From: an uncultured Candidatus Saccharibacteria bacterium
GTDB lineage: Bacteria > Patescibacteriota > Dojkabacteria > SC72
DNA: 64,000 nt
Assembly (NCBI GenBank): GCA_964480345.1
Contig: CAYZNW010000003.1
Coordinates: forward strand, 45,493 to 109,492
Reading direction: 5' to 3'
Part shown: piece by piece, positions 13,006 to 56,546 of the stretch
Numbering within the stretch: the first letter of the stretch is position 1
How the letters are laid out: each line of letters opens with the position of its first letter
Program-made: the position numbers and the translations under genes
The notes under the pieces: generated by a model
Database searches by the model: none
Seen by the model: only the letters and a program-made list of their open reading frames with translations
What the model was told of the DNA's origin: nothing

Positions 13006-13018
13006 TTTTAGTCGAGTT

Positions 13019-13474: not shown

Positions 13475-13497
13475 AATTATTAAATTTACAAATTATA

Positions 13498-34365: not shown

Positions 34366-34388
34366 ATTTTTGGTATAACTAAATAGAT

Positions 34389-36002: not shown

Positions 36003-36005
36003 TAA

Positions 36006-37217
36006 ATGAAGAAATTTAAATACTCAGCAAGAGATAACAGAGGACAAGTGATAGAAGGTGAATTAGAGGCAAAAGATATTGAATCAGTATCAGATATTTT
36101 GCATGACAAAGGATTAGTAACTGTCTCTGTCAAGGAAGGCTCAGGATTTGATTTACAGAAACTAAATGAGATAAATATTGGTGGTGTTCCGATGAAAGAT
36201 AAGGTGGTCTTCATGAGACAGATGTCAACAATGGTTGGTGCTGGTCTACCACTTACTAGAGCATTAGAGATTATGGTTCAACAAGCAAGTAATCCCAAAT
36301 TTAGAAAAGTATTACAAAGTGTTTTGCAATCTGTTGAGTCAGGTAAAACATTAGCGAACTCATTTAGAGAGCAGGAAGAGGTATTTGATAATATTACTGT
36401 TAATCTAATAGAAGCAGGAGAAGAAAGTGGTAACTTAGAAGTTATTTTAGAGAAGCTAGCTACTGAGCTTGAAGAAAGCCAATCTTTATCAAACAAAATT
36501 AGATCAGCGATGATATACCCAGCAATCATTCTTCTGGTTATCATAGGTGTAATCTTAATGATGATGTTTGTCTTAGTCCCATCTATGGCAGAGATATACA
36601 AAGATTTCGATGCAGAACTACCATGGACGACAAGATTCCTTATGAGTATGAGCTCCTTTTTCTTGAACTACTGGTGGGCTATATTAATAGTGATAATCTC
36701 ATTAGCATTAGGTATCAAATACTATCTTGGAACTGAAGCAGGAAGAGCTAACTTTGATAGATTGATATTAAAGGTTCCTGTTGTAGGTCCTATTATTTCT
36801 AAAATACAGCTTTCTCAATTTACTAGAATCTTAGCCTTACTATTAGGTAGTGGATTATCCATTATTAAGGCATTGGAATTAACAGCACAATCATTAAGTA
36901 ACTCAGAATATAGAGGTACAGTTTTAACAGCAAGAGATGAAGTCGAAAAGGGAGGAACATTGGCTCTCCCTATTGCTAGGAGTCCACACTTCCCTCTTCT
37001 AGTAAGTAGTATGATTTCAGTTGGAGAGGAAACAGGAGAGATAGATAATGTATTGAACAAAGTATCTGAATACTACAAAGAAGAGGTAGATACTGCAACA
37101 TCTAACATGTCTACGATTTTAGAGCCTCTGTTCTTAATTATCATGGGCTTAGCAATCGGATTTATTGCTCTAGCAGTGTACATGCCTATGTTCCAATTAT
37201 CCTCTGCTATTGGATAA
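36006..37217 (+). CDS. pilC: type IV pilus platform protein PilC (GspF family)
   Basis: Two GspF repeats; three TM segments. Confidence 0.9.
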   Translation: MKKFKYSARDNRGQVIEGELEAKDIESVSDILHDKGLVTVSVKEGSGFDLQKLNEINIGGVPMKDKVVFMRQMSTMVGAGLPLTRALEIMVQQASNPKFRKVLQSVLQSVESGKTLANSFREQEEVFDNITVNLIEAGEESGNLEVILEKLATELEESQSLSNKIRSAMIYPAIILLVIIGVILMMMFVLVPSMAEIYKDFDAELPWTTRFLMSMSSFFLNYWWAILIVIISLALGIKYYLGTEAGRANFDRLILKVPVVGPIISKIQLSQFTRILALLLGSGLSIIKALELTAQSLSNSEYRGTVLTARDEVEKGGTLALPIARSPHFPLLVSSMISVGEETGEIDNVLNKVSEYYKEEVDTATSNMSTILEPLFLIIMGLAIGFIALAVYMPMFQLSSAIG

Positions 37218-37288
37218 TTCATTGCTTGACATATCAATCAAAGTTCTGTAATTTATAAGTAATTAATTTGTTACTGTCTCTATTATTT

Positions 37289-37858
37289 ATGAAGAAGACT
37301 TCATACAAGGCATTCACATTGATTGAAATGCTTATCGTTATGGGTATCATTATCATTCTTATGGTAGTTGGTATAAGTGCGGCTAGGTTCGCTATTAACA
37401 GGGCAAATGATATTGCTCATCAAAATGCTGTTACTCAGATATTCCAAGCTTTAATGGCTTACTACACAGATAATAGACAGTATCCAGTTGCTCAAAATGT
37501 TCAGACATTGATAGGTACACCAGGAAATACCTCAGCTCCATTAAATAAATATATGAACGAGGGTTCATTTAAGGGTGGTACTCCAGCAAGTTATATATAT
37601 ATGGTAGATGATATACATCAGTCAGTTGCGGTTTGTGTTACATTAGGTGGTGTTAATGATGAAGCAGATAGGGGAATCTTCTGTGATGGTAATGCATTTG
37701 GAAGCCCTGAGCTAGAAACCCCAGTACAAGGTCCTTCCTTCACAAAGAAAGGAACTCTTGACTCTGAAGTGGATGAGCAAGTTTACGGGCTATTAAAAGG
37801 TTATACAGATGGTACATCTAACTGGTATGGAGATTCTACTGGTTGGACACAGAACTAA
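37289..37858 (+). CDS. type IV pilin (putative major pilin), prepilin leader MKKTSYKA|FTLIEML
   Basis: Class III signal with Glu+5 and a hydrophobic N-terminal helix; the ORF track starts at an upstream TTG (37268). Confidence 0.8.
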   Translation: MKKTSYKAFTLIEMLIVMGIIIILMVVGISAARFAINRANDIAHQNAVTQIFQALMAYYTDNRQYPVAQNVQTLIGTPGNTSAPLNKYMNEGSFKGGTPASYIYMVDDIHQSVAVCVTLGGVNDEADRGIFCDGNAFGSPELETPVQGPSFTKKGTLDSEVDEQVYGLLKGYTDGTSNWYGDSTGWTQN

Positions 37859-37883
37859 TAGCATGAGTGCTTAGTTGAAAATG

Positions 37884-37913
37884 AACCCCTCTTTTTAGAG
37901 GGGTTTTTCTTTT
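37884..37913 (+). terminator. rho-independent terminator
   Basis: CCCCTCT-TTTTAG-AGGGG followed by TTTTTCTTTT. Confidence 0.8.
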
Positions 37914-37935
37914 ATGTATATGATAATATATTCTC

Positions 37936-38697
37936 ATGTTTGTAATATATAGTTCTATATTTTTTCTAGGTGCATCTCTTGCCAGTTTTATTAATGCTAC
38001 TCTGTATAGGATTGATAACAAGAAAGAGTTTAAGAATAATTGGAGGACAATAGCCAGAAGAAACTCTTACTGTGAGAACTGTAAAAAAGAGCTTAATTGG
38101 ATAGAGCTATTCCCTATTGTTGGTTATTTAATATATGGAGGTAAATGTTCTAAATGTAGAAAATCTATAAATATCTATTATCCAATCTCTGAGTTTATAT
38201 TGGGAGTTTCTACTCTACTCTTCTATTTAAACAGTGTTCCTTTTTATCTTTATATAATTCTGATTTTTCTGTTTATACTTTCCTACTATGATTATATATA
38301 TAAAGCGGTACCGAAGAGTTTAGTTCATGTGTTTTTAGGTATATCGATTTTGTTTTTTATTGTTTTTAATTTCAGTTTAATTACTTTGGTAATAGTTCTA
38401 TCTTTAGCTATATCTCTATTGATTCTATCTGCTTTAATGAAAAAATCTTTTGGATTAGGAGATGTTTTAATATTAATAGGGCTTGGTATTGTAATGTCTT
38501 ACAAAAGCTTTTTAGTTATGTTTTGGATTGGAATATTACTAGCCCTACTCTGTTCTATAGTTTATTCTATATTGAAAAAAAGAGATTTGAGGAAGATAAA
38601 GATTCCTATGATTCCATTTTTTACGATTTCATTTCTGATTACGTGTATATATGGGTTACATATATATGATTTACTAACTAACTGGTTATCTACTTAG
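37936..38697 (+). CDS. pilD: prepilin peptidase (A24 family, PilD)
   Basis: N-terminal Zn ribbon 'CENC...CSKC'; polytopic; 'GLGDVLILIGLG' catalytic Asp region. Confidence 0.8.
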   Translation: MFVIYSSIFFLGASLASFINATLYRIDNKKEFKNNWRTIARRNSYCENCKKELNWIELFPIVGYLIYGGKCSKCRKSINIYYPISEFILGVSTLLFYLNSVPFYLYIILIFLFILSYYDYIYKAVPKSLVHVFLGISILFFIVFNFSLITLVIVLSLAISLLILSALMKKSFGLGDVLILIGLGIVMSYKSFLVMFWIGILLALLCSIVYSILKKRDLRKIKIPMIPFFTISFLITCIYGLHIYDLLTNWLST

Positions 38698-41600
38698 CCC
38701 ACCAGAACGGTTGTTTTACTCCACTATTAAACCATTTACCGTGTCTCATAATCTGGTTCATTGTAGGTCCATCTACTGTATAGTCTAACTGTACTTGATT
38801 AATTATTGGAGATACATCTGTATCTGTGCTTGTTAATGTTGCTTTGTACTGGAAGAATCTGTAGCTACTTCCTAGAGTTATTAGTTCTGGAGATACGGTT
38901 GGTAGATACTCTTCACTTGTTATGTTATCTATCCATATATTTCTTCCTCCGTATGTATTGTCTACTCTCATTGTTAGAAGGTTGGCTCTATCTAAATGGG
39001 TGTCTAATGTTCTTCCTTTGATTGGTAAATACTCTTTCTGCCATTTAAATACATTTGCTTTGGTAGTAAAGCCACCTGTTGGGAATGTAGATATACTCTC
39101 CCAATTTCTAACTGTGATAGCTCCTGTGTCTTTGTTTACACTTGTTACTACTCCCTGTGCTATGTACTCTCCACTACTGTTTTGTTCTCTTACTATGATC
39201 TTCTCTCCTGTATATATGTTACTTCCTTTGCTCTTCATTCCTTTTACTGTTCCATCTATTGTAAAGGAGGTATCAGAGGATGATGTTATGAGGTTAGAGC
39301 TATCTAATCCTGCTCCAAACTCTATTTCAATGTTATGTGTTCTTAATCCTACTTCATATGCTTGTCTTATTTCATCTGCACTTCTTGCTATGTTGGAGAT
39401 TCTAACTTCGTCTATTTCTCCATTAAACATTTCGACATAATTAGTAAATCCAATATATGGTAAATTAGAATACCCACTCAATCTTAAATTATATGTTGTG
39501 ACAGGAGAACCGTATGCTGTTGAGTTTGATGCTTTGAGTTCACCATTTAGATATATCTTTAAACCAGAAGAGTCTCCTGTAGCTACTACATGATACCATT
39601 TGTTGAGTTCTACAAGGTTAATTGGAGTTAATAACACATTAGTTCCTCCTCTATCCAGAAATTCTAAAGCACCTGTTGTATTTAATCTGATACGGTACCC
39701 AGAGTTATCACCTTTGTTTATAAAATTAGCAACATCATTAAACTCCTTTGGTTTTATCCACGCCTCTAGGGTGATAGCAGATGGATTTAATGAGGTTGAA
39801 TCAGGTATGACAATATAATCTGAGGTACCATTGAAGTTCCTAGCTCCTCCTATTCGACCGTTATTGGTATATGTAGTTCCTATTGACATTCCGTTGTTAT
39901 TGTATCCTGAACTATCTTTGATATATGCTCCATTCCCATCTATTTCATCTAAGTGCCATAGACCTACTGTATTTGCATCTGGTTGATAGTTTGCATATGC
40001 ACTCTCTCCTACTGTTGTAGATATGTTCTCTCCTACTTTATCACTAGCTATATATACAGGGAGAGAAATTTTTGATGATAGATTCTGTGTTGGTAATAGA
40101 TAATTTGAATATATTGATTTAGGTGAAGAGTTACGATCTACACCTTGAGTGTATTCAGCTAATATTTCGGATGCTGATAAAGCTCTATTGTATATTTTAA
40201 CTTCATCTATTAATCCATTGAATCCTGCTTCTCCAGGTATTTGCTTACTAATATTTAACTCTGTATTAGTTAAATTAACAGTGACCGCATATGTACTAAC
40301 TGCACTTGTAGAGACCTGAGCTCCATTTTTGTAGCAATATATATTAGTACCATCGTAGGAAAAAGTGACATGATTCCATTGAGAAATATCAAGATAAATA
40401 AAACATTGGGCTCCATTCCATATACCCGCAGATATATTACCATCGACATTGTACACTAAATGAATATTACTTGGTTCATACCCTCCAAGGCCAAGAATCC
40501 ATTGTCTCATGGTTGGTGAAGCGTATGGCTTAAGCCATAAATCTACTGTATGTACTTTATCTCCTGTTCCTAATCCACTATTTGGAACTGTTATATAATC
40601 ATTAGTTCCATTAAAACTTCTGCTTTTTCCTACTCGCCCATCTACTATTGTTGTTCCGGTAGCAGTACCTACCCTATCTCCTACCTTATCTGCAACTGTA
40701 GTGCCTGATAGCTCATCCATATCCCAATAGGAGATTAATCCTGTATTCTTTTTTTCAAAGATTGTTTTTAGAGAAGAGTATTCTTCAAAAATCTCTTGAG
40801 TGGAAAGTGTACGATTATATATTTTTGGTTCGTCTAATTGTCCGTTGAAAAACCCCGCTGATGCTATATTTGATCCTAGATAGGTATCTTTATCAGGTCC
40901 TAATGTAAATGTAGATGCAAATTCATTTTCAAGTACACCATCTATATATAATCGAGTCTTAGTTCCATCATTTGTTCCTGTTATTAAATGCCAATTACCA
41001 TCATTTATAGAGGATTTGCTTTCATGGGTAGCTGAGTTGTTACCAGATGTGTTATCAAAATCTATTAACACTTTACCAGTTGAAGAAAATGCGTTTATAT
41101 ATAGGAATAGTCCTCTTGATTGGAATAACATTGAATTTGATGTTGTAGTAGTTTTTACCCAAATACTAGCACTCATAGAAGTGAAAGAAGAAAAATCTAT
41201 TAATGGGACTTGTACATAATCGCTAGTCCCATTGAAGCTTCTACTATTATTTGCCTTACCTTGTGCTATTGTAGTTCCTGTAGCAGTTCCGTTATATGTA
41301 CCTACACTATCTTTAACTACACTTCCACTATTCTCATCCATCTTCCAATATGATACTAATCCATCATTTACAGTAGTCCCTATTCTATTTGATTTATATG
41401 GAAGTTCTTGATTATATAACCTCTCTATTTCATCAGATGTTTTAGCTGCGTTGTATATACGTACATCATCAACAATACCATTAAAACCTTTCCACCTATT
41501 AATGATAATATCGCCACTTGCTTGTCTTATTCCCATGTTACTATATGGTATGCTACTAACTTCTTTCCCATTAACATATAATCTAATAACACTATTTGGA

Positions 41601-44600
41601 CTATCTATTACTCCTACAACATGATACCAAGAATCCTCAGCTATTATCCCCACAGGGCTATTAAGTACAGTACTAGCTACTCCTATGTTATCTACCGATG
41701 TTGATATAAAGCTAATATATTTACCAACTGTATTTATTACTAACATGTATTGTCTATCGGAGCAATTTGTCTCACTACAATCAGCTGCTCCTGTATTTTT
41801 ATTTATCAAATCCATCCAAGTACCACTAAGCGTAGAGGTTTTGAACCATGTTGCTACTGAGAGTTGACTACCACTACCATTAATATCTAAATCTGGAGTA
41901 TTTGGTAATGTTATGTAATCAGTACTTCCATTAAAACTCCTAGCTTTATCATACTTACCATCTACTATTGTTGTTCCTGTTGCACTACCATTACTACTCC
42001 CTACGCTGTCTTTTACTTCGCTACCACTTAATTCATCCATCTTCCAATGAGATACTAAACTATCATCTAATGTACTAGTATTATCTGCAGTCATATTACT
42101 ACTACTTTGTGTAAGAGTAGATCTTTTCTCTATACCTTCTAAATAGTCTGATTGAATTCTATCTGCTGCAAGAGCTTTATTGTATAATTTTACTTCGTCG
42201 ATTATACCTGACAGGGTTCCATTAGGATATGTGTTATCACCCGCTATGAACAAATCTCCACTTCCCTGCCTAATTCCACTACTGCTATATGCTGTAGAAG
42301 CCATTAGTGCTCCATTAAGATAGATACGCATATATCCGTTAGTGCTATCAATTGTACCAACAATATGATACCAAGTGTTTGGATTTATATATCCCCATCC
42401 AACATCTGTTTGTCCTACTCCTATGTTATCTACTGCCGTTGAAGAGAAAACTAAAGTACCACTCTGATTAAGAAACATAGCATATTGCCTATTCACTCCA
42501 CTGTCTGGATTTGTATCAGCCTTATAAAGTAGTGTATGCCAATTCCTTTGTGACATATCAGAAATATTCATCCAGAAACTAACAGTAATTTTACTACCAG
42601 CTCCATTAATATCTAAAGAGCTACTGTTTGGTATTCTTACAACACCAGTATTTCCATTGAAGCTTCTAGCTTTTGCATATTTTCCATCTACTATCCCTGT
42701 TCCAGTAGCTGTACCGTTATTACCTGTTCCTGATATATCACTGACAGTTGTTCCACTCTCTTCATTCATACTCCAATACCCAACTAATCCATCTTCTTTA
42801 TTATTGTATAAGCTACTATTATCAAAAGATCTTAATGTACTCTTTGCTGTATTTTCTTTCCACTCACTCCATGTACCATCATTAGGGTTGTTACTATTTC
42901 CACCTCTAATATGAAATCTAGTATTTCCCGAGTTATAGTTTGAAAGAACTTCTGAGGAAGTAAGAGATCTACTGTAGATTCGAACAGAATCCATCAATCC
43001 TTTATAGTTATTCCCTCCTGCATTTGTAAGCCTTCCCATCTCTAAATTTGTACTGTTAGAAACACTATTTATAGGTCCTGCATTTATCACATCTGCTAGT
43101 CGACCATCAAGATATAATGATAATATTGTAGAGGATTTTGTGGCTACCACATGATGCCATTGATCGTCTACAACAATAAAGTTTGAAGAGCCAATATTTT
43201 TTGTTCCTCCGCTATCGTGAACTTCAAACAATATCTTTCCTTTAGGTTCACCATTAATAGAGATAACACTTAAATTGTAACCAATTCTAGTTGGAGAAAA
43301 AACTTGTTTACTAATTAATGTCGGAAAGGATTCTGCAATAGCATAATCTGCTTTGAACCATACTTCCAAACTAAAGTCTCCTGTACTAAAATCACCTACT
43401 GTACTGTTAGATGCTGTTACATAATCATCAACTCCATCAAACATTAATCCTCCACCTCCCCATCTCCTGTTGTTGTATGTCCAACCACTACCTATAACCT
43501 TATCTTGTCCTGTCGTATCAGAAAAATTAGTTAGAGTTCCATTACAACCACTACCACAACTACCTCCACTACTTGCTACTGTTCCACTACTCTCATTGAA
43601 ATTCCACTGAGCTACTAAGCCAGTAGTGCTATACGGTACCTCCCCATCTCCTGTATTTATACCTGATACAGTAGAAGATACATTTACTTTTGATACACTT
43701 GATCCTGAATCAAATACTGTAGATTCATACTCTCCTGAATATCTCTCTTTACCATACAAATATGTCTTATATATCTCATCTGCACTTCTAGCTATATTGG
43801 ATAAACGTACCTCATCTACTAACCCATTAAAGCCTACTTCGCTCCCTGGTCCTTTACCAATATTTAACTCTGTATTAGCTAAATTGACAGGAACTCCAAC
43901 AGTAGGAGCATTACTAGATACCTGTACTCCATTCTTATAGCAATACATATTAGTTCCGTTGTAGGTGAAAGCTATATGATTCCACTGAGAAATATCAAGG
44001 CGAATAGGACATTGTGAACCACTCCATATACCAGCATAAATATTCCCATCAGTACCATATATGAGATGTATATTACCTTGGTCATATCCTCCCATCACAA
44101 GAAGCCATTGTCTTATTGTTGGTAGAGTATATGGTTTAATCCATAAATCTATTGTATGTGTCTTATCTCCTGTTCCTAATCCACTATTTGGAACTGTTAT
44201 ATAATCATTCTCTCCATCAAATTCGTATCCTTTCCCTATCTTCCCATCTACACCAATTGGTGATATATCTAACAACTTAATTGATGTGAAAAAAGTAACT
44301 TCAGCTACAATAATATTATTAGTTGTAGGAGTGAAATTAACCCAAGTAGCATTGTTATTATATTGCCAACTACTTCCACTATATTTAACAGCAACAAAAT
44401 GATTACTGTTATTTGCTTCTAATCCAGTTATACCTTGAGCTGAAAGAGATGGAGAATACATGATATATCCACTACCTGCTTCAGCATCTGTAACAGCTAT
44501 TCCAGAGTTGATAGTAGGAGTGATTATCCTAATCCCATTCCGATCTATAAAATAGCAATTAGCATCACCATATGTACACTCAATATCTATCTCTCCAGCA

Positions 44601-46678
44601 TTATCAACTCCTCCATAACGATTTAATTTAAAAGTAAGATTAGAGCTTTGTATGCCATAGCTCATACCATTTAAAGAAGTTGCAATATGGTTATTATTAG
44701 TAGAACTGTCGGCTGCTGGTGTTAATGCTGGTATTCTGTATCTAACAATAACTATTCCCGATCCACCGTTTCCGCCTGCAAGGTATGCTCCTGTAAATGA
44801 ACCCCCACCCCCTCCTCCACCTGTATTCGCTATACCATTAGTACCTGCACCATTTAGAACTCCACTTCCTCCACCTCCATTTCCACCAGTACCAACATAA
44901 GAGCCATTAACTTCTCCACCACCTCCACCTCCTGCATATACAACTGCAGTTCCTGTAATATCGCTAACTCTTCCAGCACCACCATTACCTGATCCTGAAC
45001 TGTTTCCTCCGTCTGCTCCCACACCACCTGCACCTCCACCTCCTCCATTTGTTCCTACCCATCCTGAAACTATGTATCCAGCACCTCCGTTATATCCTTG
45101 GGAACCAATTCCTCCTGTTGATAAAGGAGCGGATACAACAACAGCACCACCACCACCACTACCTCCACTTCCACCTGCAAGTTGCCCATGAGTTATTCCG
45201 GCACCCCCTCCTTCAGCAATCAGAGATGAGAAGGCCGAATCTTGTCCTTTATTACCATTATATGCACCTCCGTCTGCTCCTCCATTACCTCCATTCCCTA
45301 CAGTGACTGCAATATTCCCTTTAGATACAGTAAAAGAAGATTGCTCTACAAAACCTCCTGCTCCTCCTCCAGAACCAGTATTTGCACCACCCCCTCCTCC
45401 TCCTATAACTAACACATCCACTTTCCCATCTGTATGTGCTGTAAAAGTTCCACTAGAAGTAAAAGTATGAATCACATAATCACCAACCCTTGTTACTGTT
45501 CCACCACTTGCTGAAAAATATGGAAGATCTCCAAAACTCCAATGCCCCACAGTATTAGAATCCACAACAGGCTTCTCCACACCTAATAACTCTACCCCAC
45601 TCACACTAGATACATAATCTGAACTTATATATGTACCACTATCAAAATCTACCTTACTGTTATGAACAATACTAGGATCTATTCTAATTGGAAAAACCCT
45701 ATCATTCGAATACAACCAATCGGAATCTAAAACTAACCTTATCTCATACCTACCTCCATCAATATGACTAATATTAAACTCCACATCATACGTCTTACTA
45801 TTAACTCCATCCACTGCAAAACTAGGAAGAAAATGACTAACATAATTACCATACCTATCCTCAAAATAGTAAACCTCCCTACTACCCTCACCTACATTAA
45901 ACCAACCCTTCTTTAACATTAACCCTTCTTCAACACTCAAATCAAAAACATACTCATTAGCAGGTAGAGAACAATCCTGTACATCCTCACAATCTTTAAT
46001 ATATGAATCTAAATTACGAATAATTATCTCCTCCTTAAGACCTATTCCCTCTATGATCTGATACTCTAAATCTATACCTTTTGATATTTCCTTATTTACT
46101 ACTGTCTTCTTAGTAATACTATCTTTCTCTTCTTCTCCAAACACTCTTCCCAAATCAACTAATTCTGTATTACTCTTAATATCTCTGTTACCCATTATCT
46201 CTGATACCTCTTTCAACTTCTCTTCATCTTTATCATTTAATTTCTCTAAATCGCTAACCTTAACCCCCTTTATTGACATCTCTATACCGTAGCTTTTAAT
46301 AGGTCTGAAGAAATTCTTAACCTTATCCCAAAACCCTCTTGTATTTTCTTCAAAAGGATTCCTCTTACTAATATCTGATTCAAACCTAACCCACTGAACA
46401 TCAGGTTGATCTCTTTTACCAAAATCTACTGAAAATTTAGGATTCTTGTTCCCATAAATAGTATGACTATTTGTACTTTGCAAAAATATATCAGAGTTAG
46501 GTTTTACACTACTAATATAGTAGATGAGGAATGACAGAAGAATAGCTATTCCAATAACAATACCAAATATAAATGATTTCTTACCTTTTAAGTTCTTCCA
46601 ATTAAATCTTCTTTTACTGTTGTTGAGATGTTTTAGGACAGATTTCATCATCATAAATATTAACATAGTAGAATACAT
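38690..46678 (-). CDS. giant (2662 aa) membrane-anchored surface protein with a Gly-rich segment and at least 8 LamG/Concanavalin-A-like lectin modules
   Basis: It has an N-terminal TM helix and a ~220-aa GGxGG-rich region. Units of 'W.MDE.SG...NG.ATG......GK...SFNG..DY' ending 'DEVRIYN.ALS..EI' recur throughout. Confidence 0.8.
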   Translation of the reverse strand: MYSTMLIFMMMKSVLKHLNNSKRRFNWKNLKGKKSFIFGIVIGIAILLSFLIYYISSVKPNSDIFLQSTNSHTIYGNKNPKFSVDFGKRDQPDVQWVRFESDISKRNPFEENTRGFWDKVKNFFRPIKSYGIEMSIKGVKVSDLEKLNDKDEEKLKEVSEIMGNRDIKSNTELVDLGRVFGEEEKDSITKKTVVNKEISKGIDLEYQIIEGIGLKEEIIIRNLDSYIKDCEDVQDCSLPANEYVFDLSVEEGLMLKKGWFNVGEGSREVYYFEDRYGNYVSHFLPSFAVDGVNSKTYDVEFNISHIDGGRYEIRLVLDSDWLYSNDRVFPIRIDPSIVHNSKVDFDSGTYISSDYVSSVSGVELLGVEKPVVDSNTVGHWSFGDLPYFSASGGTVTRVGDYVIHTFTSSGTFTAHTDGKVDVLVIGGGGGGANTGSGGGAGGFVEQSSFTVSKGNIAVTVGNGGNGGADGGAYNGNKGQDSAFSSLIAEGGGAGITHGQLAGGSGGSGGGGAVVVSAPLSTGGIGSQGYNGGAGYIVSGWVGTNGGGGGAGGVGADGGNSSGSGNGGAGRVSDITGTAVVYAGGGGGGEVNGSYVGTGGNGGGGSGVLNGAGTNGIANTGGGGGGGSFTGAYLAGGNGGSGIVIVRYRIPALTPAADSSTNNNHIATSLNGMSYGIQSSNLTFKLNRYGGVDNAGEIDIECTYGDANCYFIDRNGIRIITPTINSGIAVTDAEAGSGYIMYSPSLSAQGITGLEANNSNHFVAVKYSGSSWQYNNNATWVNFTPTTNNIIVAEVTFFTSIKLLDISPIGVDGKIGKGYEFDGENDYITVPNSGLGTGDKTHTIDLWIKPYTLPTIRQWLLVMGGYDQGNIHLIYGTDGNIYAGIWSGSQCPIRLDISQWNHIAFTYNGTNMYCYKNGVQVSSNAPTVGVPVNLANTELNIGKGPGSEVGFNGLVDEVRLSNIARSADEIYKTYLYGKERYSGEYESTVFDSGSSVSKVNVSSTVSGINTGDGEVPYSTTGLVAQWNFNESSGTVASSGGSCGSGCNGTLTNFSDTTGQDKVIGSGWTYNNRRWGGGGLMFDGVDDYVTASNSTVGDFSTGDFSLEVWFKADYAIAESFPTLISKQVFSPTRIGYNLSVISINGEPKGKILFEVHDSGGTKNIGSSNFIVVDDQWHHVVATKSSTILSLYLDGRLADVINAGPINSVSNSTNLEMGRLTNAGGNNYKGLMDSVRIYSRSLTSSEVLSNYNSGNTRFHIRGGNSNNPNDGTWSEWKENTAKSTLRSFDNSSLYNNKEDGLVGYWSMNEESGTTVSDISGTGNNGTATGTGIVDGKYAKARSFNGNTGVVRIPNSSSLDINGAGSKITVSFWMNISDMSQRNWHTLLYKADTNPDSGVNRQYAMFLNQSGTLVFSSTAVDNIGVGQTDVGWGYINPNTWYHIVGTIDSTNGYMRIYLNGALMASTAYSSSGIRQGSGDLFIAGDNTYPNGTLSGIIDEVKLYNKALAADRIQSDYLEGIEKRSTLTQSSSNMTADNTSTLDDSLVSHWKMDELSGSEVKDSVGSSNGSATGTTIVDGKYDKARSFNGSTDYITLPNTPDLDINGSGSQLSVATWFKTSTLSGTWMDLINKNTGAADCSETNCSDRQYMLVINTVGKYISFISTSVDNIGVASTVLNSPVGIIAEDSWYHVVGVIDSPNSVIRLYVNGKEVSSIPYSNMGIRQASGDIIINRWKGFNGIVDDVRIYNAAKTSDEIERLYNQELPYKSNRIGTTVNDGLVSYWKMDENSGSVVKDSVGTYNGTATGTTIAQGKANNSRSFNGTSDYVQVPLIDFSSFTSMSASIWVKTTTTSNSMLFQSRGLFLYINAFSSTGKVLIDFDNTSGNNSATHESKSSINDGNWHLITGTNDGTKTRLYIDGVLENEFASTFTLGPDKDTYLGSNIASAGFFNGQLDEPKIYNRTLSTQEIFEEYSSLKTIFEKKNTGLISYWDMDELSGTTVADKVGDRVGTATGTTIVDGRVGKSRSFNGTNDYITVPNSGLGTGDKVHTVDLWLKPYASPTMRQWILGLGGYEPSNIHLVYNVDGNISAGIWNGAQCFIYLDISQWNHVTFSYDGTNIYCYKNGAQVSTSAVSTYAVTVNLTNTELNISKQIPGEAGFNGLIDEVKIYNRALSASEILAEYTQGVDRNSSPKSIYSNYLLPTQNLSSKISLPVYIASDKVGENISTTVGESAYANYQPDANTVGLWHLDEIDGNGAYIKDSSGYNNNGMSIGTTYTNNGRIGGARNFNGTSDYIVIPDSTSLNPSAITLEAWIKPKEFNDVANFINKGDNSGYRIRLNTTGALEFLDRGGTNVLLTPINLVELNKWYHVVATGDSSGLKIYLNGELKASNSTAYGSPVTTYNLRLSGYSNLPYIGFTNYVEMFNGEIDEVRISNIARSADEIRQAYEVGLRTHNIEIEFGAGLDSSNLITSSSDTSFTIDGTVKGMKSKGSNIYTGEKIIVREQNSSGEYIAQGVVTSVNKDTGAITVRNWESISTFPTGGFTTKANVFKWQKEYLPIKGRTLDTHLDRANLLTMRVDNTYGGRNIWIDNITSEEYLPTVSPELITLGSSYRFFQYKATLTSTDTDVSPIINQVQLDYTVDGPTMNQIMRHGKWFNSGVKQPFWWAK
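40250..40630. repeat. intragenic DNA repeat, copy 2 (paralogous to 43850-44230)
   Basis: About 70 nt is near-identical (40551-40618 vs 44151-44215) within ~380 nt of 75-95% similarity. It encodes duplicated LamG modules. Confidence 0.6.
43850..44230. repeat. intragenic DNA repeat, copy 1
   Basis: See copy 2. Confidence 0.6.
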
Positions 46679-49778: not shown

Positions 49779-50177
49779 ATGGATAATTCAAACAAAACAA
49801 TATTAATCATAGAAGATGAGCAAGATCTTTTAGATTCATATAAAGAGCTAATCAGTATGGGGGGATATTCGGTAGCTACCTCCATAGATGGATATCACGG
49901 TCTTGATTACTTAGCTACAAATATTGGTCATGTAGATCTGGTTCTTTTAGATCTGATGATGCCTGGTGTAGATGGTCTAGAAGTATTACGAGCCATTAAA
50001 GCTGATAAGGATAAGTATGGTGATATGCCAATCATCGTTTTAACAAATATGTCTAGTGAACTAGTCATAAAAGAAGCTTTTGATCTAGGGGCATCTTCAT
50101 ACTTGGTTAAATCAGACTTAGATTATGATGGTTTACTTAAGGAGCTTAATAAATATTTAGGAAGCAGTGATAAATAA
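49779..50177 (+). CDS. single-domain CheY-like response regulator receiver (PilH-like)
   Basis: 'ILIIEDE', 'LVLLDLMMPGVDG', 'YLVKS'. Confidence 0.8.
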   Translation: MDNSNKTILIIEDEQDLLDSYKELISMGGYSVATSIDGYHGLDYLATNIGHVDLVLLDLMMPGVDGLEVLRAIKADKDKYGDMPIIVLTNMSSELVIKEAFDLGASSYLVKSDLDYDGLLKELNKYLGSSDK

Positions 50178-51658
50178 TGAGTAAATATTACTTCTCAAAA
50201 GAATCAAAGATAAAGAGAATTCTACTTCGAATATTCATAGTCGTATTAGTAATTTCTTTAGGATATGGTGCATACTACTACTTTTCAAATATTGATAAGG
50301 ATATAACAACAAGATATTTAAATGGTACTAAATATGAATTCCTTAACAGATTTTATGAGAGTAATAATGGATACACCTATACATATACTGCCAAAGGGAT
50401 AGTTTACAATGCAAAAAAGAGTGATTCAGAGGTGACTTTTGATATTAATGCTTGGGATCCAAAAACAAAAGAGAGCTTGTACTACTCCAATATATCTCTC
50501 GGAAATGTAAAATCAGGTGCCCTATCAATAGAGGATGCTTTCTATGATTTCAAGCCAGTAAAGATACAGTTTGATTTCGTAAAGAAGAAATTGGTTAATG
50601 TAGAAGTTACTGATTTAGTTTTAGAACAGAAAGAGTATCAGTATGTAAATGACAGCATATTAAGGTTCCTTACAAAAGGATATTCAGCAAATATTAATGA
50701 GGAAGGCTCCACATATTCTGCAGATTTACCAGTAAATATATTTGATAGAAATGGGCAAATTTCTCTCTTGCCATTGTATGTTAACGGTGATGCTTTAACT
50801 GCTTTGTATGGCATAGCAGTATTAACAAAAGATACTGAAGTAGATACCACCTTTAATCCTGATACATACATTGAAGCGTCTGTCTCTCGAATTAGTAATA
50901 GTATGAAAGCAAACGGTATTCTGTCTACTATGATTCCTGATGGATGCTCTTTGCTTTTGAAAATAGAGCAAGAAGGAGTATACTCTGACTCTCAAATTAA
51001 TAAATTACGAAATATTTTTTGTTCTCAAGGAGAATTTACTTCCATATTTTCAAGAAAAGAAGAAAGTAAGTGGAAGGATTTACTCACTTTTGTAGGTTCA
51101 GAGAAATTAGATACTGCTTACAAACCAGATGTCGAATTCGTAGGACTTATGTCTCTGTCTGATGCCTACTCTATGGCGACTTTGTACGGTAAGACTCTTA
51201 CTGAGGCGGAGGTTACAAATGTAGAGAACAGAATAGTAAATTCAGTGATATCATCTGGACGAGATTTAACGACATACGCTGTTCCGTACAAAACCTTATG
51301 TTCGCTAGCCTACTCTTTAACCTCTGTACCTAACTACAGTAATATGGAGAAGTATAATTCGGTAGTTGTTGGATTAGAAGATACAGTAAGCTCATATTCT
51401 AATAACGAGGAGCTACTGAAACTGTTAGAGAAAGACACAAAATCTACTTTGATGTGTGCACAGGCTTTTGCAAATAGTGAAGATAAAAGAGTTAGAGATC
51501 TTTTTAGTTCTACTTTAATAAAGATGTTCTATTTAAATATGTATGATAAAGAGGGACATACTGGTCTTTGGTCAGTATTCCCTGAGTATATGATGATGAG
51601 TATTGAAGATAGTGTAAGGTATTTTAACTTGTTAAAGGTAGAGTATGCGAAAAAGTAG
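50177..51658 (+). CDS. N-terminally anchored extracytoplasmic hypothetical protein (493 aa)
   Basis: Single N-terminal TM; no recognised motifs. Confidence 0.45.
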   Translation: MSKYYFSKESKIKRILLRIFIVVLVISLGYGAYYYFSNIDKDITTRYLNGTKYEFLNRFYESNNGYTYTYTAKGIVYNAKKSDSEVTFDINAWDPKTKESLYYSNISLGNVKSGALSIEDAFYDFKPVKIQFDFVKKKLVNVEVTDLVLEQKEYQYVNDSILRFLTKGYSANINEEGSTYSADLPVNIFDRNGQISLLPLYVNGDALTALYGIAVLTKDTEVDTTFNPDTYIEASVSRISNSMKANGILSTMIPDGCSLLLKIEQEGVYSDSQINKLRNIFCSQGEFTSIFSRKEESKWKDLLTFVGSEKLDTAYKPDVEFVGLMSLSDAYSMATLYGKTLTEAEVTNVENRIVNSVISSGRDLTTYAVPYKTLCSLAYSLTSVPNYSNMEKYNSVVVGLEDTVSSYSNNEELLKLLEKDTKSTLMCAQAFANSEDKRVRDLFSSTLIKMFYLNMYDKEGHTGLWSVFPEYMMMSIEDSVRYFNLLKVEYAKK

Positions 51659-54077
51659 ATATATTTTAATAACAATAGCATCATCGTTAATACTACTCTC
51701 TCTCTCTTCAAGATTCGCTCAGTCTGCATGGGAACCTATTGGAACTAATGCAGATGGAAGCATACTGTATCAAAATGAAGAAGGAGGATGGTGTTCAGGT
51801 CCTGCAGGAGGTACAGAACCAGAGTGCCACCATGAAAGTGAACCACCATGCCAAACTCATGCTTGTACTCTTCCTGCCTGTCCTGATGATACTGTCCTAT
51901 ACAATACAGGATATTCTACACAATATACTGTTAGCTGTGATAAAGGTTGTGGAGAAGTAGAAAGAAAATCGTGCTATGAAAGACCCACAACATGTAATCC
52001 AGTATATGAGAATTGCGAAGATTCATACATATACAGTTTACAATCAGAAGTACAGTTTCAACCATTACAAACAACAAACAAAATGGGGTATACATCTACT
52101 ACATACTCAGGTTTAGAAATAAATAACCCTGTAGGAGTAGAAGCTAGATATTGGAGTACAGTTGATAACAGTAAACTTGAAGCTATATATTTCTGGATGG
52201 CGAAAGAAGGAAGTGGAGCTCCTGGGGTAACAGGAAGTAGTGTAGAAGAGATGATATGCACAGAATTTCAGATACGCCCCCAACCAAATGGAGAATGGGA
52301 ACATGTATGTACAAAAACTGCAAATATATCGCCAACAAAAACAGTAGGTATTGAGTGGTTGTATGACAATCAAGTATCAGCAGGAAATTCAATATCAAAT
52401 GGAAGTTGGGGGTTCATGGTTAGAAAAGTAAACGGTAATTGGTCAGATGTATATGTACCTCTTGTGACAAATAGCAGAACGTATTGGGCAAAGATAACAA
52501 ATGTGGGAACTACATTTACACTCCACTCTAAATCAGGTAGACCATTAGTAAATATCTCTGATTTAAAAATATCACAAACAGACAAAGTAATTTCAAATTT
52601 TAGAATAACCTTTCTAAATGAAAATTCAGGAGTATCTAACTATGAAAAAGTATCAGAGGGAGTATATAACGCATATACGATGGTAAACGATGAATTTGGA
52701 TTTACACCTTGGGATAACTACACAAGTCAGGAAATCAAAAACAAATTAGGGTACAAACCAAATCAGATTAGACTTAGTAATCAATGGAAAAAAGGACCAA
52801 GCTGGGGAGTAGATCTTACTAGACCTGCAATTAGCAGGTTACAATCGATAATCCCCTCCTCTACTAGATTAATGATAGATTGGGAAGGTCAAGATTTGGA
52901 AAGCTCTATCTCCTACTCTGTTGGTAATGTATTTAGATTAAAAGATGCATTAGTAAAAAACAGTCCTGTGATCTATCCTGCAGGAAGTGGTAGAACATTT
53001 ATACTAAATTTTCAATCAGAAAGTGATCTTGTAGGAAAGATAAATGGAAGTAATATCCTATGGCAGAAGGAAAACAGTAAATCAGGAGCAGAAGATATTG
53101 ATTTAGTAGATAACCGAGGAGGGTATATGGATTTCTATGTAACTGTATTTGATAAAGGTGGAAATCATCTTACACAAAATGTTCGTTTCAAATTAGGAGA
53201 GTGGATTCAGACAAAAGGAGGATTCTTCTACAGTAAAAGCGGAGCATATTTAGATACGCGTCGTATTACTCCAGGAATCTGGATAGAGAGAAATCTGTTT
53301 GATAAATATGGATTTAAAGAAAATCAGGTAGATTTAGGAACTGAGTTAATATCTGGAAATGTTTCCAGACAATCAGCTTTATCAGTTGTAAACTATCTAA
53401 ATCAAAATGGCGTATTTAGAGCTATCAATTATGCCGGTCATCGCAAATCAGATGTGTATTATGAATACTTAGAGAAAATGCAAAAATTAGATGAAAAGAA
53501 ATATGAGAAAATTACTGTTGGTAATCTATCAGGTAATTTAACTGACAGCTGTTTTGATAAAGAGAAATGTAAAAACTCCATAGTAGTGAATACTGTAAAC
53601 AGTGATTTAACAGTAAACTCAAACTTCACATGTGATACTAGAGCAGTTATGCTAGTTAATGGAAATATCTATATAAATCCAGATATTACTAATTTAGATA
53701 ACCGATCAGCTTGTGTATTTATTGCAAAAGAGAATATATATATCAGAGAGGGAGCACATAAATCTGGAGCAAATATAGGTTTTGATGTCGTAGAAGGATA
53801 CTTCTTAGCTAATGGGACAATTAAAATAGAGAAAGAAAACAAACCATCTTCTGATAGAACAGATGGCTTATTCATAGAGGGAGGAATACTCTCATTTGGA
53901 ACTGATCCTGCAGAAAATGCTAGTATTATGCTAAAAAGAGAATTACATTTGGCCGATAGACATCCATATCCAGTATTAAATATAATTCATCATCCAAAAT
54001 ATGGTAAACTAATGCAAGATTTGTTTGAAGGTGATAGATTAGTATTTAAGACAGAGGTTGGTTTTAAACAATTCTAG
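51645..54077 (+). CDS. secreted 810-aa protein with Cys-rich N-terminal module
   Basis: Signal peptide; ~14 Cys in the first ~120 mature residues. Confidence 0.5.
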   Translation: MRKSRYILITIASSLILLSLSSRFAQSAWEPIGTNADGSILYQNEEGGWCSGPAGGTEPECHHESEPPCQTHACTLPACPDDTVLYNTGYSTQYTVSCDKGCGEVERKSCYERPTTCNPVYENCEDSYIYSLQSEVQFQPLQTTNKMGYTSTTYSGLEINNPVGVEARYWSTVDNSKLEAIYFWMAKEGSGAPGVTGSSVEEMICTEFQIRPQPNGEWEHVCTKTANISPTKTVGIEWLYDNQVSAGNSISNGSWGFMVRKVNGNWSDVYVPLVTNSRTYWAKITNVGTTFTLHSKSGRPLVNISDLKISQTDKVISNFRITFLNENSGVSNYEKVSEGVYNAYTMVNDEFGFTPWDNYTSQEIKNKLGYKPNQIRLSNQWKKGPSWGVDLTRPAISRLQSIIPSSTRLMIDWEGQDLESSISYSVGNVFRLKDALVKNSPVIYPAGSGRTFILNFQSESDLVGKINGSNILWQKENSKSGAEDIDLVDNRGGYMDFYVTVFDKGGNHLTQNVRFKLGEWIQTKGGFFYSKSGAYLDTRRITPGIWIERNLFDKYGFKENQVDLGTELISGNVSRQSALSVVNYLNQNGVFRAINYAGHRKSDVYYEYLEKMQKLDEKKYEKITVGNLSGNLTDSCFDKEKCKNSIVVNTVNSDLTVNSNFTCDTRAVMLVNGNIYINPDITNLDNRSACVFIAKENIYIREGAHKSGANIGFDVVEGYFLANGTIKIEKENKPSSDRTDGLFIEGGILSFGTDPAENASIMLKRELHLADRHPYPVLNIIHHPKYGKLMQDLFEGDRLVFKTEVGFKQF

Positions 54078-54121: not shown

Positions 54122-55153
54122 ATGGCTAAGCTGCCCGATCATGTTGGAATAGATTTTGGAACTCACTCAGTAAAAGCTGTAGAGTTGGTAAACATCTCTT
54201 CGAATACACCAAAGTTATCAAATTTAGGATCCCAATTAACTCCCAAAGGAGTTATAAACAGCGAGAACAAAGCTGATCAAGAAAAACTAGCTGGAGTATT
54301 GAAAAAACTTTATGAATCCTCAGGATTAAAGAATAAAGCTGTAGTTATGGCACTACCAGAGTTCTCTGTGTTCACTAGATTCTTAGAATTCCCAGGAGTA
54401 AAACAGGAAGAGTTAAAAGATGTTGTATACTATGAAGCCAAGCAGTATATCCCTATGCCACTTACAGAAGTTCAGTTAAGCTATGTACCAATAGGATTTA
54501 ATGCTGAAAGAAATGCTCCTAAAGTATTGATAGTAGCAGCACCTAGAAAAATAATAGATATATATATTAATGTAGCTGTCTTTGCAGGACTGGATCTGGT
54601 AGCAATGGAAACTGAATCAGTGGCAATGGGAAGAGCTATGTTTAAATCTACAGGCAAAAAGAACTTAGTAATGCTTGATTTCGGAGCTAACAGTACAGAT
54701 ATGAGTATTTTAGCAGATGGTAATCTTGTATTCTCACAAAGTATAGCAATCGGTTCTGACTCATTAACCCAAGCGATTATTAATAAATTCAACTTCGAAT
54801 ACCAAAGAGCTGAAGAGTTTAAACGGAACTACGGAGTAGTTGAAAATGTCCTTGAAGGTAAAATCTATGCAGTACTCTCCCCCATATTAGAATCAATCAT
54901 GATAGAAGTAAGACGAGGAGTTGAATTCTACAAATCTAGAACTTTAGCCTCAGCTCCCTCAGAGTACATATTAAACGGAGATGGTGCTTTACTACCAGGA
55001 ATCAAAGAGTTCATAGCTAAAAGTTTAGGCGCTACTGTTTCCGTAGCTGTTCCATGGAACAATATATTAGTAGAAGATAAATTCAAAGATATCGTTGCAA
55101 AAGGAGGCCCATCCTACTCTGTTGCAATAGGACTTGCATTAAAAGATGAATAA
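54122..55153 (+). CDS. pilM: type IV pilus assembly protein PilM (actin-like ATPase fold)
   Basis: 'HVGIDFGTHSVKAVEL' N-terminal phosphate-1 motif. Confidence 0.75.
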   Translation: MAKLPDHVGIDFGTHSVKAVELVNISSNTPKLSNLGSQLTPKGVINSENKADQEKLAGVLKKLYESSGLKNKAVVMALPEFSVFTRFLEFPGVKQEELKDVVYYEAKQYIPMPLTEVQLSYVPIGFNAERNAPKVLIVAAPRKIIDIYINVAVFAGLDLVAMETESVAMGRAMFKSTGKKNLVMLDFGANSTDMSILADGNLVFSQSIAIGSDSLTQAIINKFNFEYQRAEEFKRNYGVVENVLEGKIYAVLSPILESIMIEVRRGVEFYKSRTLASAPSEYILNGDGALLPGIKEFIAKSLGATVSVAVPWNNILVEDKFKDIVAKGGPSYSVAIGLALKDE

Positions 55154-55820
55154 CCAACAAAATCAAACACAACCAAATAACCCTGTTCCTAAAACTCCAG
55201 AAGAAACACAGGCTAATTTGAAGAAGGAACAATTCATCGATACAAACATGTTAGATGGCTCCTCTGGTATTAACCTTGTACCATTGATGAGCAAAGAAGA
55301 AATTGTCAAAGAGGAGAAGAAACAGAAGTTAAATATGTCCTCTATCATTATTATCATTATCCTTATTGTCATAACCATCATTGTAGTAGGATTCAATGTA
55401 ATATCAAAAATGGAATTAAATTCTGCTAAATCAAAATTAACAGAATTAGAAAATGAAGCAAACACATACTCTGAGAAAATAAAAAGTAATGATGAAATTC
55501 TTGACAGAGTATTTCTGTACAAAGAGATTGAAAGTAAACAGTACTCTTCTAAATCAGTAGTTGAATATATTACAGATATAGCAAGGAAGAGTGGCAATGT
55601 AAGCTTAATATCATTTGATTTCGTAGGAAAAGAGTCAATTGCATTTGAGGGAAATTCTGAAAACTTAGAAACAGCAGCAAAGTTTTGGTATCTTCTAAAC
55701 AGTGATACTAATTTTGAGAATATGAGCATGGAAACTATTTCCAAAACCCCTTCTGAAATTAGATTCTCTTTTGAAGGGAAAATATTAGTAGATAGATTTT
55801 TAAACTCTGAGAAGATATAA
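55146..55820 (+). CDS. PilN-like bitopic pilus assembly protein
   Basis: Cytoplasmic N-terminus, single TM, then coiled coil; overlaps the pilM stop. Confidence 0.55.
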   Translation: MNNQQNQTQPNNPVPKTPEETQANLKKEQFIDTNMLDGSSGINLVPLMSKEEIVKEEKKQKLNMSSIIIIIILIVITIIVVGFNVISKMELNSAKSKLTELENEANTYSEKIKSNDEILDRVFLYKEIESKQYSSKSVVEYITDIARKSGNVSLISFDFVGKESIAFEGNSENLETAAKFWYLLNSDTNFENMSMETISKTPSEIRFSFEGKILVDRFLNSEKI

Positions 55821-55823
55821 GAC

Positions 55824-56546
55824 ATGGCAGAATCAGTACCAATACAAACACAACAAGCAACAACAAAGGAAACATTAAAACAAGCTAATAACGCTAAAAT
55901 TAAACCTAAGTTAAAACTGACTGATTTAATAATACCGATAACTTTAGGTTTAGTTTCTATAATAATTAGTGTTTTTGTATTTGTACCTATGGTTGAGTCA
56001 GCATTTACATCAAGGACAGAATTAAAAGATGTAAAATCTAAACAGACTCAGATAACTAATCTTAACAGAGCAGTAAGTTCCATAGATGATGGAACTATGC
56101 AGATTGATCTATTGAATGCGAAAAAAGTTATTCCTAAATCTTTAACAGTCTCTAGCTTTATATACTATGTAGATGAATTAGCTAAACAGCTGAATTTAAC
56201 ATCAAAAACCTTATCTGCAGGAGATATTCAAATTACTACTGGAGGTCGAGATGAGAAGAAAAACTACTCTGGAGTTAGTGGTCCATTAGCATACTCTGGT
56301 ACAAGAGAAGATGTACTTAACTTCTTAGATAGCCTTTATGCTGCTTCCCCATATATTATCTCGGCAGACAATATATCATTAGAGCAGTCTTCCATGACAG
56401 CTGAGTGGAAAGTTGCACTTAACATAACAGGATATTATGTTTTAGAAAAAGATTACAGAGTAAATCTATACCTTCCGTTTAGTGTCTATACAAACAAACC
56501 AGAAGTAATTAAAACCTTTACTGAAAAAGCTGAAAAGTTGAAATAG
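55824..56546 (+). CDS. PilO-like bitopic pilus assembly protein
   Basis: Single TM 'LIIPITLGLVSIIISVFVFVPMV' followed by a coiled coil; position after pilM/N. Confidence 0.5.
   Translation: MAESVPIQTQQATTKETLKQANNAKIKPKLKLTDLIIPITLGLVSIIISVFVFVPMVESAFTSRTELKDVKSKQTQITNLNRAVSSIDDGTMQIDLLNAKKVIPKSLTVSSFIYYVDELAKQLNLTSKTLSAGDIQITTGGRDEKKNYSGVSGPLAYSGTREDVLNFLDSLYAASPYIISADNISLEQSSMTAEWKVALNITGYYVLEKDYRVNLYLPFSVYTNKPEVIKTFTEKAEKLK

Follow-up and report, generated by a model that had tools for sequence, protein, structure and literature searches.

A membrane-anchored and a Sec-exported protein encoded as a pair in the Dojkabacteria type IV pilus locus: a candidate pilus-associated adhesin and its partner

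Results

A gene pair between the minor pilins and pilMNO

The stretch of DNA analyzed here, referred to below as the window, is a 64-kb segment (64,000 nucleotides of contig CAYZNW010000003.1; GC content ~33%) that contains a complete type IV pilus locus. Two open reading frames, ORFA and ORFB, lie in this locus between the gene of a stand-alone response-regulator receiver protein (RR) and pilM (Table 1). A first-pass annotation of the window had described them as an N-terminally anchored protein of 493 aa and a secreted protein of 810 aa. Both the reading frames and this topology are confirmed: ORFA has a basic tail followed by a single hydrophobic segment, and ORFB has a Sec-type signal and no other transmembrane (TM) segment. 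As also stated there, the two are uncharacterized extracytoplasmic proteins, neither having a sequence match in Pfam, NCBIfam or the PDB (the best PDB phmmer match of ORFA, with an E-value of 0.02, is insignificant). ORFB belongs to a protein family of considerable size that, like its six-Cys repeat, had not been described before; it comes with a paired, fast-evolving partner, and all of this is embedded in a known machine. Relatives of the locus are annotated as Candidatus Dojkabacteria (WS6, a lineage of the candidate phyla radiation (CPR)); some carry the label “uncultured Candidatus Saccharibacteria,” with the same gene order and similarity as the rest.

The stop codon of the RR gene overlaps the start of ORFA (ATAATG), and pilM begins 44 nt past the end of ORFB. 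Upstream of the RR gene are four minor-pilin genes, the first and third of which match the N_methyl motif (PF07963) in Pfam. The fourth, minor4, reads HG before the leader cleavage point and YSAQAIVIALVV after it, with no Glu at +5. Since it lacks this residue and 7 of the 22 members of its family weakly match PilX_N (PF14341; best E-value 0.0036), minor4 is described here as PilX/GspK-like; a PDB profile search with the minor4 set returned nothing usable.

Table 1. Features of the ORFA–ORFB region and of the surrounding type IV pilus genes (positions in the window)
Feature	Position	Strand	Remarks
PilB, PilT-like ATPase, PilC, pilin, PilD	32554-38697		part of the type IV pilus locus
Three minor-pilin-like genes, 255/184/236 aa	46743..48782	+	N-terminal hydrophobic pilin helix in each
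Fourth minor pilin, minor4, 316 aa	48810..49760	+	PilX/GspK-like
Stand-alone response-regulator receiver protein, RR, 132 aa	49779..50177	+	PF00072, E 8.8e-22
ORFA, 493 aa	50177..51658	+	ATG start; bitopic membrane protein
ORFA membrane anchor, residues ~15-37	50219..50287	+	from hydropathy; preceded by conserved tail MSKYxFSxxSKxKR
ORFA membrane-proximal beta domain, residues ~53-146	50333..50614	+	conserved; six strands, low-confidence model
ORFA helical ectodomain, residues 147-493	50615..51655	+	hypervariable; all-helical prediction from 229, pLDDT <50
ORFA stop/ORFB start overlap, 14 nt	51645..51658	+	putative translational coupling
ORFB, 810 aa	51645..54077	+	ATG start; Sec-exported multidomain protein
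ORFB Cys-rich head, residues 28-125	51726..52019	+	10 Cys; ends in six-Cys “neck” unit CTLPxCP...SC....C......CYE
ORFB beta-sandwich domain, residues 131-350	52035..52694	+	pLDDT ~80-96 over most; invariant FGFTPxDNY motif
ORFB FN3/Ig-like beta-sandwich region, residues 380-520	52782..53204	+	confident model; start of the module common to all distant relatives
ORFB residues 521-599	53205..53441	+	conserved GEWIQTKGGxxYS...DLxTEL; not confidently modeled
ORFB C-terminal beta-helix domain, residues 600-810	53442..54074	+	conserved tail ...YGKLxxxLFGxxRxVFKTEVGFK
PilM	54122-55153	+	PF11104 (PilM_2), E 1.2e-52
pilM, pilN-like and pilO-like genes	54122..56546	+	weak PilN match; one TM segment each in PilN and PilO
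pLDDT, predicted local distance difference test.

Export signal and Cys-rich head of ORFB

The N-terminus of ORFB contains a hydrophobic segment at residues 6–25, followed by the sequence SSRFAQS and, after the cleavage site (placed by inspection), AW, an arrangement typical of a Sec-like signal. This N-terminus (MRKSRYILITIASSLILLSLSSRFAQS, then AW) has neither a G/E5 pilin motif nor an N_methyl match, the mature part contains no further hydrophobic or TM segment, and no covalent anchor motif was found in the protein. A class III leader or a PF07963 match, the marks of type IV pilins and pseudopilins, is absent from both ORFA and ORFB, whereas the neighboring pilins have the motif or the match.

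The protein contains 16 Cys residues: 10 between residues 50 and 124, two at positions 205 and 222, and four at 636–690. The earlier description of ~14 Cys clustered near the N-terminus somewhat overstated the number. Among 30 ORFB paralogues the head that holds this cluster ranges from 98 to 502 aa and from 1 to 56 Cys, the window copy being at the 98-aa end. It is built on a unit of ~47 aa with six Cys, with the consensus PCSDCTLPSCPSPLTNT…RSC…C……CYE, its Cys columns are nearly invariant, and copies of it were detected with a hidden Markov model of the unit. One copy always abuts the ORFB body, and the long paralogues carry additional ones. Thus, the repeat (CTLPxCPxPLTNT…SC…C……CYE) is single in the window protein (51846-51980) and tandem in the pilM-proximal paralogues (L013-L031 set), where a 460-aa head may contain up to 56 Cys. 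It has no match in Pfam. The predominance of even Cys counts, together with export, suggests that the head is disulfide-bonded. A metal-binding head was considered and set aside as the leading idea, since the window protein has no CxxC pairs, most Cys counts are even, and the only PDB match was an insignificant one to a ferredoxin (E-value 3.9).

A VKOR gene paired with a DsbA/thioredoxin gene is found ~7 kb from a satellite A–B locus (L033, 1465-2888). This pair is compatible with disulfide formation in Cys-rich heads and is not evidence of linkage. A thiol-disulfide oxidoreductase family, often encoded beside a VKOR family, is enriched in the CPR and has been proposed to aid the folding of secreted pilins (PMC6744442).

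The conserved body of ORFB and its family

The rest of the protein (residues 130–810, ~680 aa) forms a body of constant length in the 30 paralogues, except for C-terminal insertions in two of them (both from L030), and 35 of its residues are invariant throughout the set. An AlphaFold2 model built from 17 sequences has a mean pLDDT of 68.9. The body begins with a beta-sandwich, followed by a second beta-sandwich region of FN3/Ig-like type that ends at W520. The next segment (residues 521–599) includes the invariant residues G525, G526, S530, G533, W546, D563, L564, E567 and G571, and the pLDDT falls below 50 at 520–547 and 560–602. Within the C-terminal domain, residues 610–700 are confidently modeled as a short-strand beta-helix. 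With Foldseek, ORFB matches adhesins and matrix proteins (RbmA, InvE, UafA and SiiE among others). A search of a viral structure library gave generic FN3/Ig matches only. The best structural matches for the beta-helix are non-enzymatic ice-binding-like helices, which are assigned to residues ~600–800 because this is the only solenoid-like part of the protein (the aligned ranges were not reported). The C-terminal 215 aa of the paralogues give sub-threshold Pfam matches to Ice_binding (E-value 0.0045), Cthe_2159 (0.005) and DUF7305 (0.016). PF11999 does not match the C-terminal domain of the window protein, and the best paralogue scores 17.1 bits, below the gathering cut-off of 28.7.

A search of 5.8 billion proteins yielded 16 relatives of ORFB with 33–78% identity, and a family profile run against 1.84 billion representatives retrieved 551 clusters, 217 of them with an E-value ≤1e-30. 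These relatives, together with the positional orthologue of ORFA described below, make the two reading frames more than a chance occurrence. Many distant members align solely to profile positions ~340–772, which correspond by direct BLASTP to ORFB from about residues 357–389 to 810; their N-terminal halves are different. Only the C-terminal ~430 aa are common to the distant relatives, which have LamG/pentaxin, DUF2341 or Gly_rich_2 modules instead. A Pfam scan of the 30 paralogues detected only Gly_rich_2 insertions in two of them and no enzyme family, and neither the ORFB family nor its C-terminal domain gave a usable match when searched as a profile against the PDB. The clear homology to an unrelated enzyme that would have spoken against the first-pass view of these genes did not appear.

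ORFA, a fast-evolving anchored protein

ORFA begins with a K/R-rich tail of 14 residues, followed by a single hydrophobic segment (~residues 10–37), with no second one in the sequence; according to the positive-inside rule, the N-terminus would face the cytoplasm and the domains would be outside. The first Cys of the protein is residue 257, and it has neither a lipobox Cys nor the PilP domain PF04351. The model, of low confidence, places a six-strand beta domain (53–146) after the TM helix and a helical domain at 229–492.

The sole detectable relative of ORFA is an orthologue in the same position, with 36–37% identity; a search with a seven-sequence profile returned the same two proteins and nothing further. 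The similarity is unevenly distributed, with residues 24–146 being 63% identical and residues 147–493 only 27%. With respect to the nearest genome, the identity of ORFA is 37%, compared to 94% for RR, 92% for PilM, 83% for PilO, 78% for ORFB, 77% for PilN and 75–86% for the minor pilins. Its positional equivalents in sister clades (L005/L006) share the tail and the TM segment only (hhalign probability 95%). Jackhmmer and hhalign comparisons among the A-like clusters detected no homology past these elements, apart from the beta domain, which is common to ORFA and the A-like protein of satellite locus L035. No Pfam match was obtained for ORFA and 34 A-like proteins, and a PDB profile search with the ORFA set gave nothing usable.

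Conserved gene order and A–B pairing

The comparison covered 26 genome loci and six contigs that had been retrieved through exact look-up of their proteins. The 20 loci that span the minor pilins to pilM all share the arrangement pilB-pilT-pilC-pilin-pilD-(pilin)-minor1-4-RR-[A-B]-pilM-N-O, and genes for KH, S16, RNase III, NusB and ClpB lie on the opposite strand beyond pilO in the compared loci. The order of the minor-pilin-like genes is kept in ~25 loci, and that of minor pilins, RR, A–B and pilMNO in ~30 Dojkabacteria loci, with ORFB identity falling to ~25%. Synteny with pilMNO, proposed in the first-pass annotation as the test of these genes, therefore holds, and the association with pilMNO is considered real because of this conservation. 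RR occupies the same slot in every primary locus, and in all of them pilMNO comes after the last B gene. In the distant locus L004, a histidyl-tRNA synthetase gene (12304-13608) is inserted between the ORFB homologue, whose head has 1 Cys there, and pilM.

The same annotation had equated the slot with the position of PilP/PilQ. In Gram-negative loci PilP and PilQ follow pilO, so the slot is not of this type; the two genes come instead after the four core minor pilins, as PilY1 does in fimU-pilVWXY1 operons.

The slot between RR and pilMNO contains one to three A–B pairs; in more distant genomes the number of ORFB paralogues there is two or three. Nearly all B paralogues are preceded by an A-like gene, whose product has a short basic tail and a single TM segment, with 180–570 aa forming a domain outside. 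The A and B genes overlap at 22 of 33 junctions and are separated by a gap of ≤15 nt at another eight, which points to coupled translation and pairwise function. A second B gene directly follows the first, with no intervening A-like gene, in L015 (6041-12145) and L026 (4385-10200).

Between pilD and the minor-pilin genes, the window contains a 2662-aa gene (38690-46678, minus strand) with an N-terminal TM segment, seven LamG (Laminin_G_3) repeats and Gly_rich_2. It is confined to the window and its closest relative (L001/L009), and in the other Dojkabacteria loci pilD leads directly to the pilins. Its LamG and Gly_rich_2 domain types recur as insertions in distant ORFB-like proteins.

Satellite loci with a PilX/GspK-like pilin

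The contexts of six distant B-like proteins (L033-L038) were also surveyed, among them those in satellite loci, which lie outside the pilus operon. L034 (5475-11546) encodes an A-like protein (355 aa), a B-like protein with DUF2341 (1358 aa) and a 307-aa pilin that is 30% identical to the window minor4 (E-value 2e-43). L035 (1930-12966) has the order B (1211 aa), minor4-like, A-like, B (1302 aa), minor4-like. In both loci the minor4-like pilins, with 29–32% identity to minor4 of the window, directly adjoin the B-like genes. The conserved C-terminal module of B thus recurs beside a PilX/GspK-like pilin even where pilMNO is missing. L033 contains two A–B pairs next to a divergent pilin set and pilC; L036, a short contig, encodes a B-like protein with LamG/pentaxin modules; and L037 is a primary locus in which B is followed by pilM.

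Comparison with known pilus-associated proteins

PilY1/PilC is the non-pilin tip adhesin of the type IVa pili of Pseudomonas, Neisseria and Myxococcus, as described in PMC7541494 and PMC8833165. ORFB resembles it in being a large, Sec-exported non-pilin encoded with the four core minor pilins, in having a conserved C-terminal and a variable N-terminal part, with paralogues bearing different heads, as in Myxococcus, and in its association by gene order with a PilX-like minor pilin. Like PilY1/PilC, it has a Sec signal and not a prepilin leader, and it is encoded with the core minor pilins or next to a PilX-like pilin. ORFB differs from PilY1/PilC in lacking the beta-propeller and PF05567, its C-terminal module being FN3-like with a beta-helix; in a head made of six-Cys repeats; in having a dedicated anchored partner gene for each copy; and in its monoderm CPR host.

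PilX1 and PilX2 of Nanosynbacter lyticus TM7x (Saccharibacteria) have been proposed as host-binding tip adhesins; their signal peptides are non-canonical, and their accessory domains are of lectin-like or propeller type (PMC11623550). They are large CPR pilus proteins, as is proposed for ORFB, but by their description they are pilins with an N-terminal helix (a “lollipop” plus a C-terminal domain), whereas ORFB has a plain Sec signal and other folds. The CPR Pam pilus is assembled from donor-strand-exchange pilins (39–55 kDa, two-domain, Sec-exported, with a truncated Ig-like C-terminal domain) with PamC/D chaperones; the family is reported chiefly from Saccharimonadia and Microgenomatia, and the pam operon has ATP synthase genes on its flanks (bioRxiv 10.64898/2026.03.03.709456). 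The A–B locus is set apart from it by its genomic context of type IV pilus genes. As for the DUF3494 ice-binding-like fold (PF11999), the conserved residues 521–599 and the C-terminal tail are specific to the ORFB family, and no paper linking DUF3494 to pili was found in the literature searched.

TcpF and CofJ are non-pilin, Sec-exported proteins of type IVb pilus operons that interact with a minor pilin, the pili secreting them by way of the minor pilin at the tip. ORFB is likewise a non-pilin, Sec-exported protein encoded in a pilus operon, but TcpF and CofJ are small soluble colonization factors with unrelated folds, whereas ORFB is large, repeat-bearing and part of a type IVa-like locus. 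Two models can be proposed for ORFA. One is the connectors of GspC/PilP type, whose architecture of a TM segment and a beta domain is seen also in the low-confidence ORFA model. The other is TfcP, an accessory protein that stabilizes PilY1.1 in Myxococcus (PMC8833165), and which is, like ORFA, a dedicated extracytoplasmic protein encoded with its adhesin. ORFA has no sequence similarity or reliable structural similarity to either of them, and both lack the long hypervariable helical domain of ORFA.

Discussion

Attachment to other microbes is the presumed lifestyle of the CPR (Patescibacteria), and the best-supported device for it is the type IV pilus. To our knowledge, a host-recognizing pilus component is known for one Saccharibacteria model only. 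We propose, with about even confidence for and against, that ORFB is a modular adhesin, associated with the pilus without being a pilin itself, and a functional analogue and not a homologue of PilY1, and that ORFA is its cognate anchored partner. The proposal builds on the observed gene structure, export signals, synteny, A–B pairing, domain folds, pattern of variability and co-occurrence with minor4, from which we infer that ORFB is located at the tip, on which pilin it docks, that it serves in adhesion and what ORFA does. The architecture is adhesin-like because a constant ~680-aa body carries a head whose length varies between 98 and 502 aa and whose repeated six-Cys units bring the Cys count to as many as 56. 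ORFB would be exported by Sec and become a disulfide-rich modular surface protein of the Dojkabacteria type IV pilus system. Its C-terminal module (FN3-like plus beta-helix, ~380–810) would dock on the PilX/GspK-like minor pilin of a priming or tip complex, and the variable head, made of Cys-rich repeats or, in relatives, of LamG, DUF2341 or Gly-rich insertions, would touch the target surface. The task of PilY1 in Gram-negative type IVa pili would thereby be carried out here by an unrelated protein. ORFA, presumably translated from the same transcript in a coupled manner, and exposing its domains on the outer side of the membrane that anchors it, would most likely hold, fold or load ORFB at the base of the pilus.

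Several observations weigh against this proposal. The fold of ORFB is not a beta-propeller and the protein has no homology to PilY1, and residues 521–599 and 745–781 are poorly modeled despite their many invariant positions. The GAST composition, which is uninformative here, does not flag ORFB as a sheared-off pilus component. Regarding ORFA, the proposed role is drawn from position and topology; its model, built from two sequences, is unusable (pLDDT 39.8), and the A-like genes of deeper clades form separate clusters without demonstrable homology. At the level of the loci, the A–B pair of L038 is followed by housekeeping genes with no pilin alongside, and where a primary locus holds two or three B genes, minor4 is still present just once.

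Locus L038 also fits a different explanation, in which the pair would form a cell-surface protein tethered by ORFA, or a released one, co-regulated with the pilus but not borne by it, and serving as a host-binding protein or an effector; release could possibly go through the pilus machinery, as for TcpF/CofJ in type IVb systems. The “secreted effector” of the first-pass annotation remains a live rival in this form. The Sec signal of ORFB without a covalent anchor motif, the adhesin-like folds, and an anchored ORFA with a large outer domain, always encoded immediately upstream, agree with such an arrangement. We nonetheless consider it rather unlikely, for the pair lies between the minor pilins and pilMNO in the 20 loci covering both flanks, and each B-like gene in L034 and L035 has a PilX-like pilin of its own, which would be hard to explain if B never touched the pilus. 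That annotation had also suggested an outer component of the pilus, and the pair could in principle be a structural part of the machine, with ORFA as a PilP/GspC-like connector and ORFB as a collar or conduit through the wall or S-layer. Its position directly upstream of pilMNO, the TM and beta-domain layout of the low-confidence ORFA model and the constant length of the ORFB body with its 35 invariant residues would be in line with this. On the other hand, neither sequence nor fold has any similarity to a secretin, PilP or GspC, PF00263 being unmatched and no secretin (PilQ/GspD) being present among the structural matches, and the hypervariability of ORFA (27–37% identity compared to 92% for PilM) is unusual for a core part. 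The tandem paralogues (one to three per locus), whose Cys-rich heads differ widely, and the satellite copies paired with a PilX-like pilin in the absence of pilMNO or any other machine genes, favor a pilus-borne adhesin over an outer component, and we regard a machine part as improbable. It is even harder to see ORFB as an extracellular enzyme, such as a beta-helix polysaccharide lyase or hydrolase opening the wall of the host or of the cell itself for the pilus, with ORFA as inhibitor or anchor: the top structural matches of the beta-helix are non-enzymatic, no enzyme family was matched by the 30 paralogues or in the PDB profile search, and no catalytic motif was identified, which leaves this option very little probability.

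A more speculative extension of the adhesin proposal, which we put forward tentatively and hold to be possible rather than probable, is that the A–B pair is a CPR-specific, exchangeable “host-recognition cassette.” B would then define a family of tip adhesins that attach to the PilX-like pilin through their FN3 and ice-binding-like beta-helix module. The role of A would be that of a dedicated, membrane-anchored loader or chaperone, its hypervariable ectodomain co-diversifying with the head, and the cassette would be swapped among loci, altering the host range. Such a cassette would be duplicated or exchanged between primary and satellite loci, sometimes with its own PilX-like pilin.

The ORFB family (551 representative clusters) offers a concrete candidate for host recognition in the whole class Dojkabacteria, combining a variable, putatively disulfide-knotted head, a conserved body that may serve for docking, a tie by gene order to a PilX-like pilin and a fast-evolving partner. 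If the adhesin proposal is right, monoderm, ultra-small bacteria would have reinvented the job of PilY1 using a protein of unrelated fold, and the family would provide markers for predicting host range from metagenomes.

Other features of the window

A near-consensus sigma-70-like site (TAGACA-18-TATAAT, 11/12) is located at 53957-53986 (plus strand), in the 3′ end of ORFB and ~135 nt before pilM, and could be an internal promoter. However, a scan of the region for terminators and promoters gave no excess over chance, promoter-like sites being no commoner than in shuffled sequence. No tRNA genes and, at the gathering threshold, no Rfam families were detected in the entire 64-kb window. Its 5′ part encodes a TrwB/VirD4-like coupling-protein/HerA-type ATPase (825 aa, 3867-6344) and a tyrosine integrase (444 aa, 11671-13005), and may be a mobile or conjugative element. 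Further downstream, a 1206-aa multi-pass membrane protein without a Pfam match is followed by an overlapping family-2 glycosyltransferase (16521-20964, plus strand), and the two may form a pair for the assembly of an envelope glycan.

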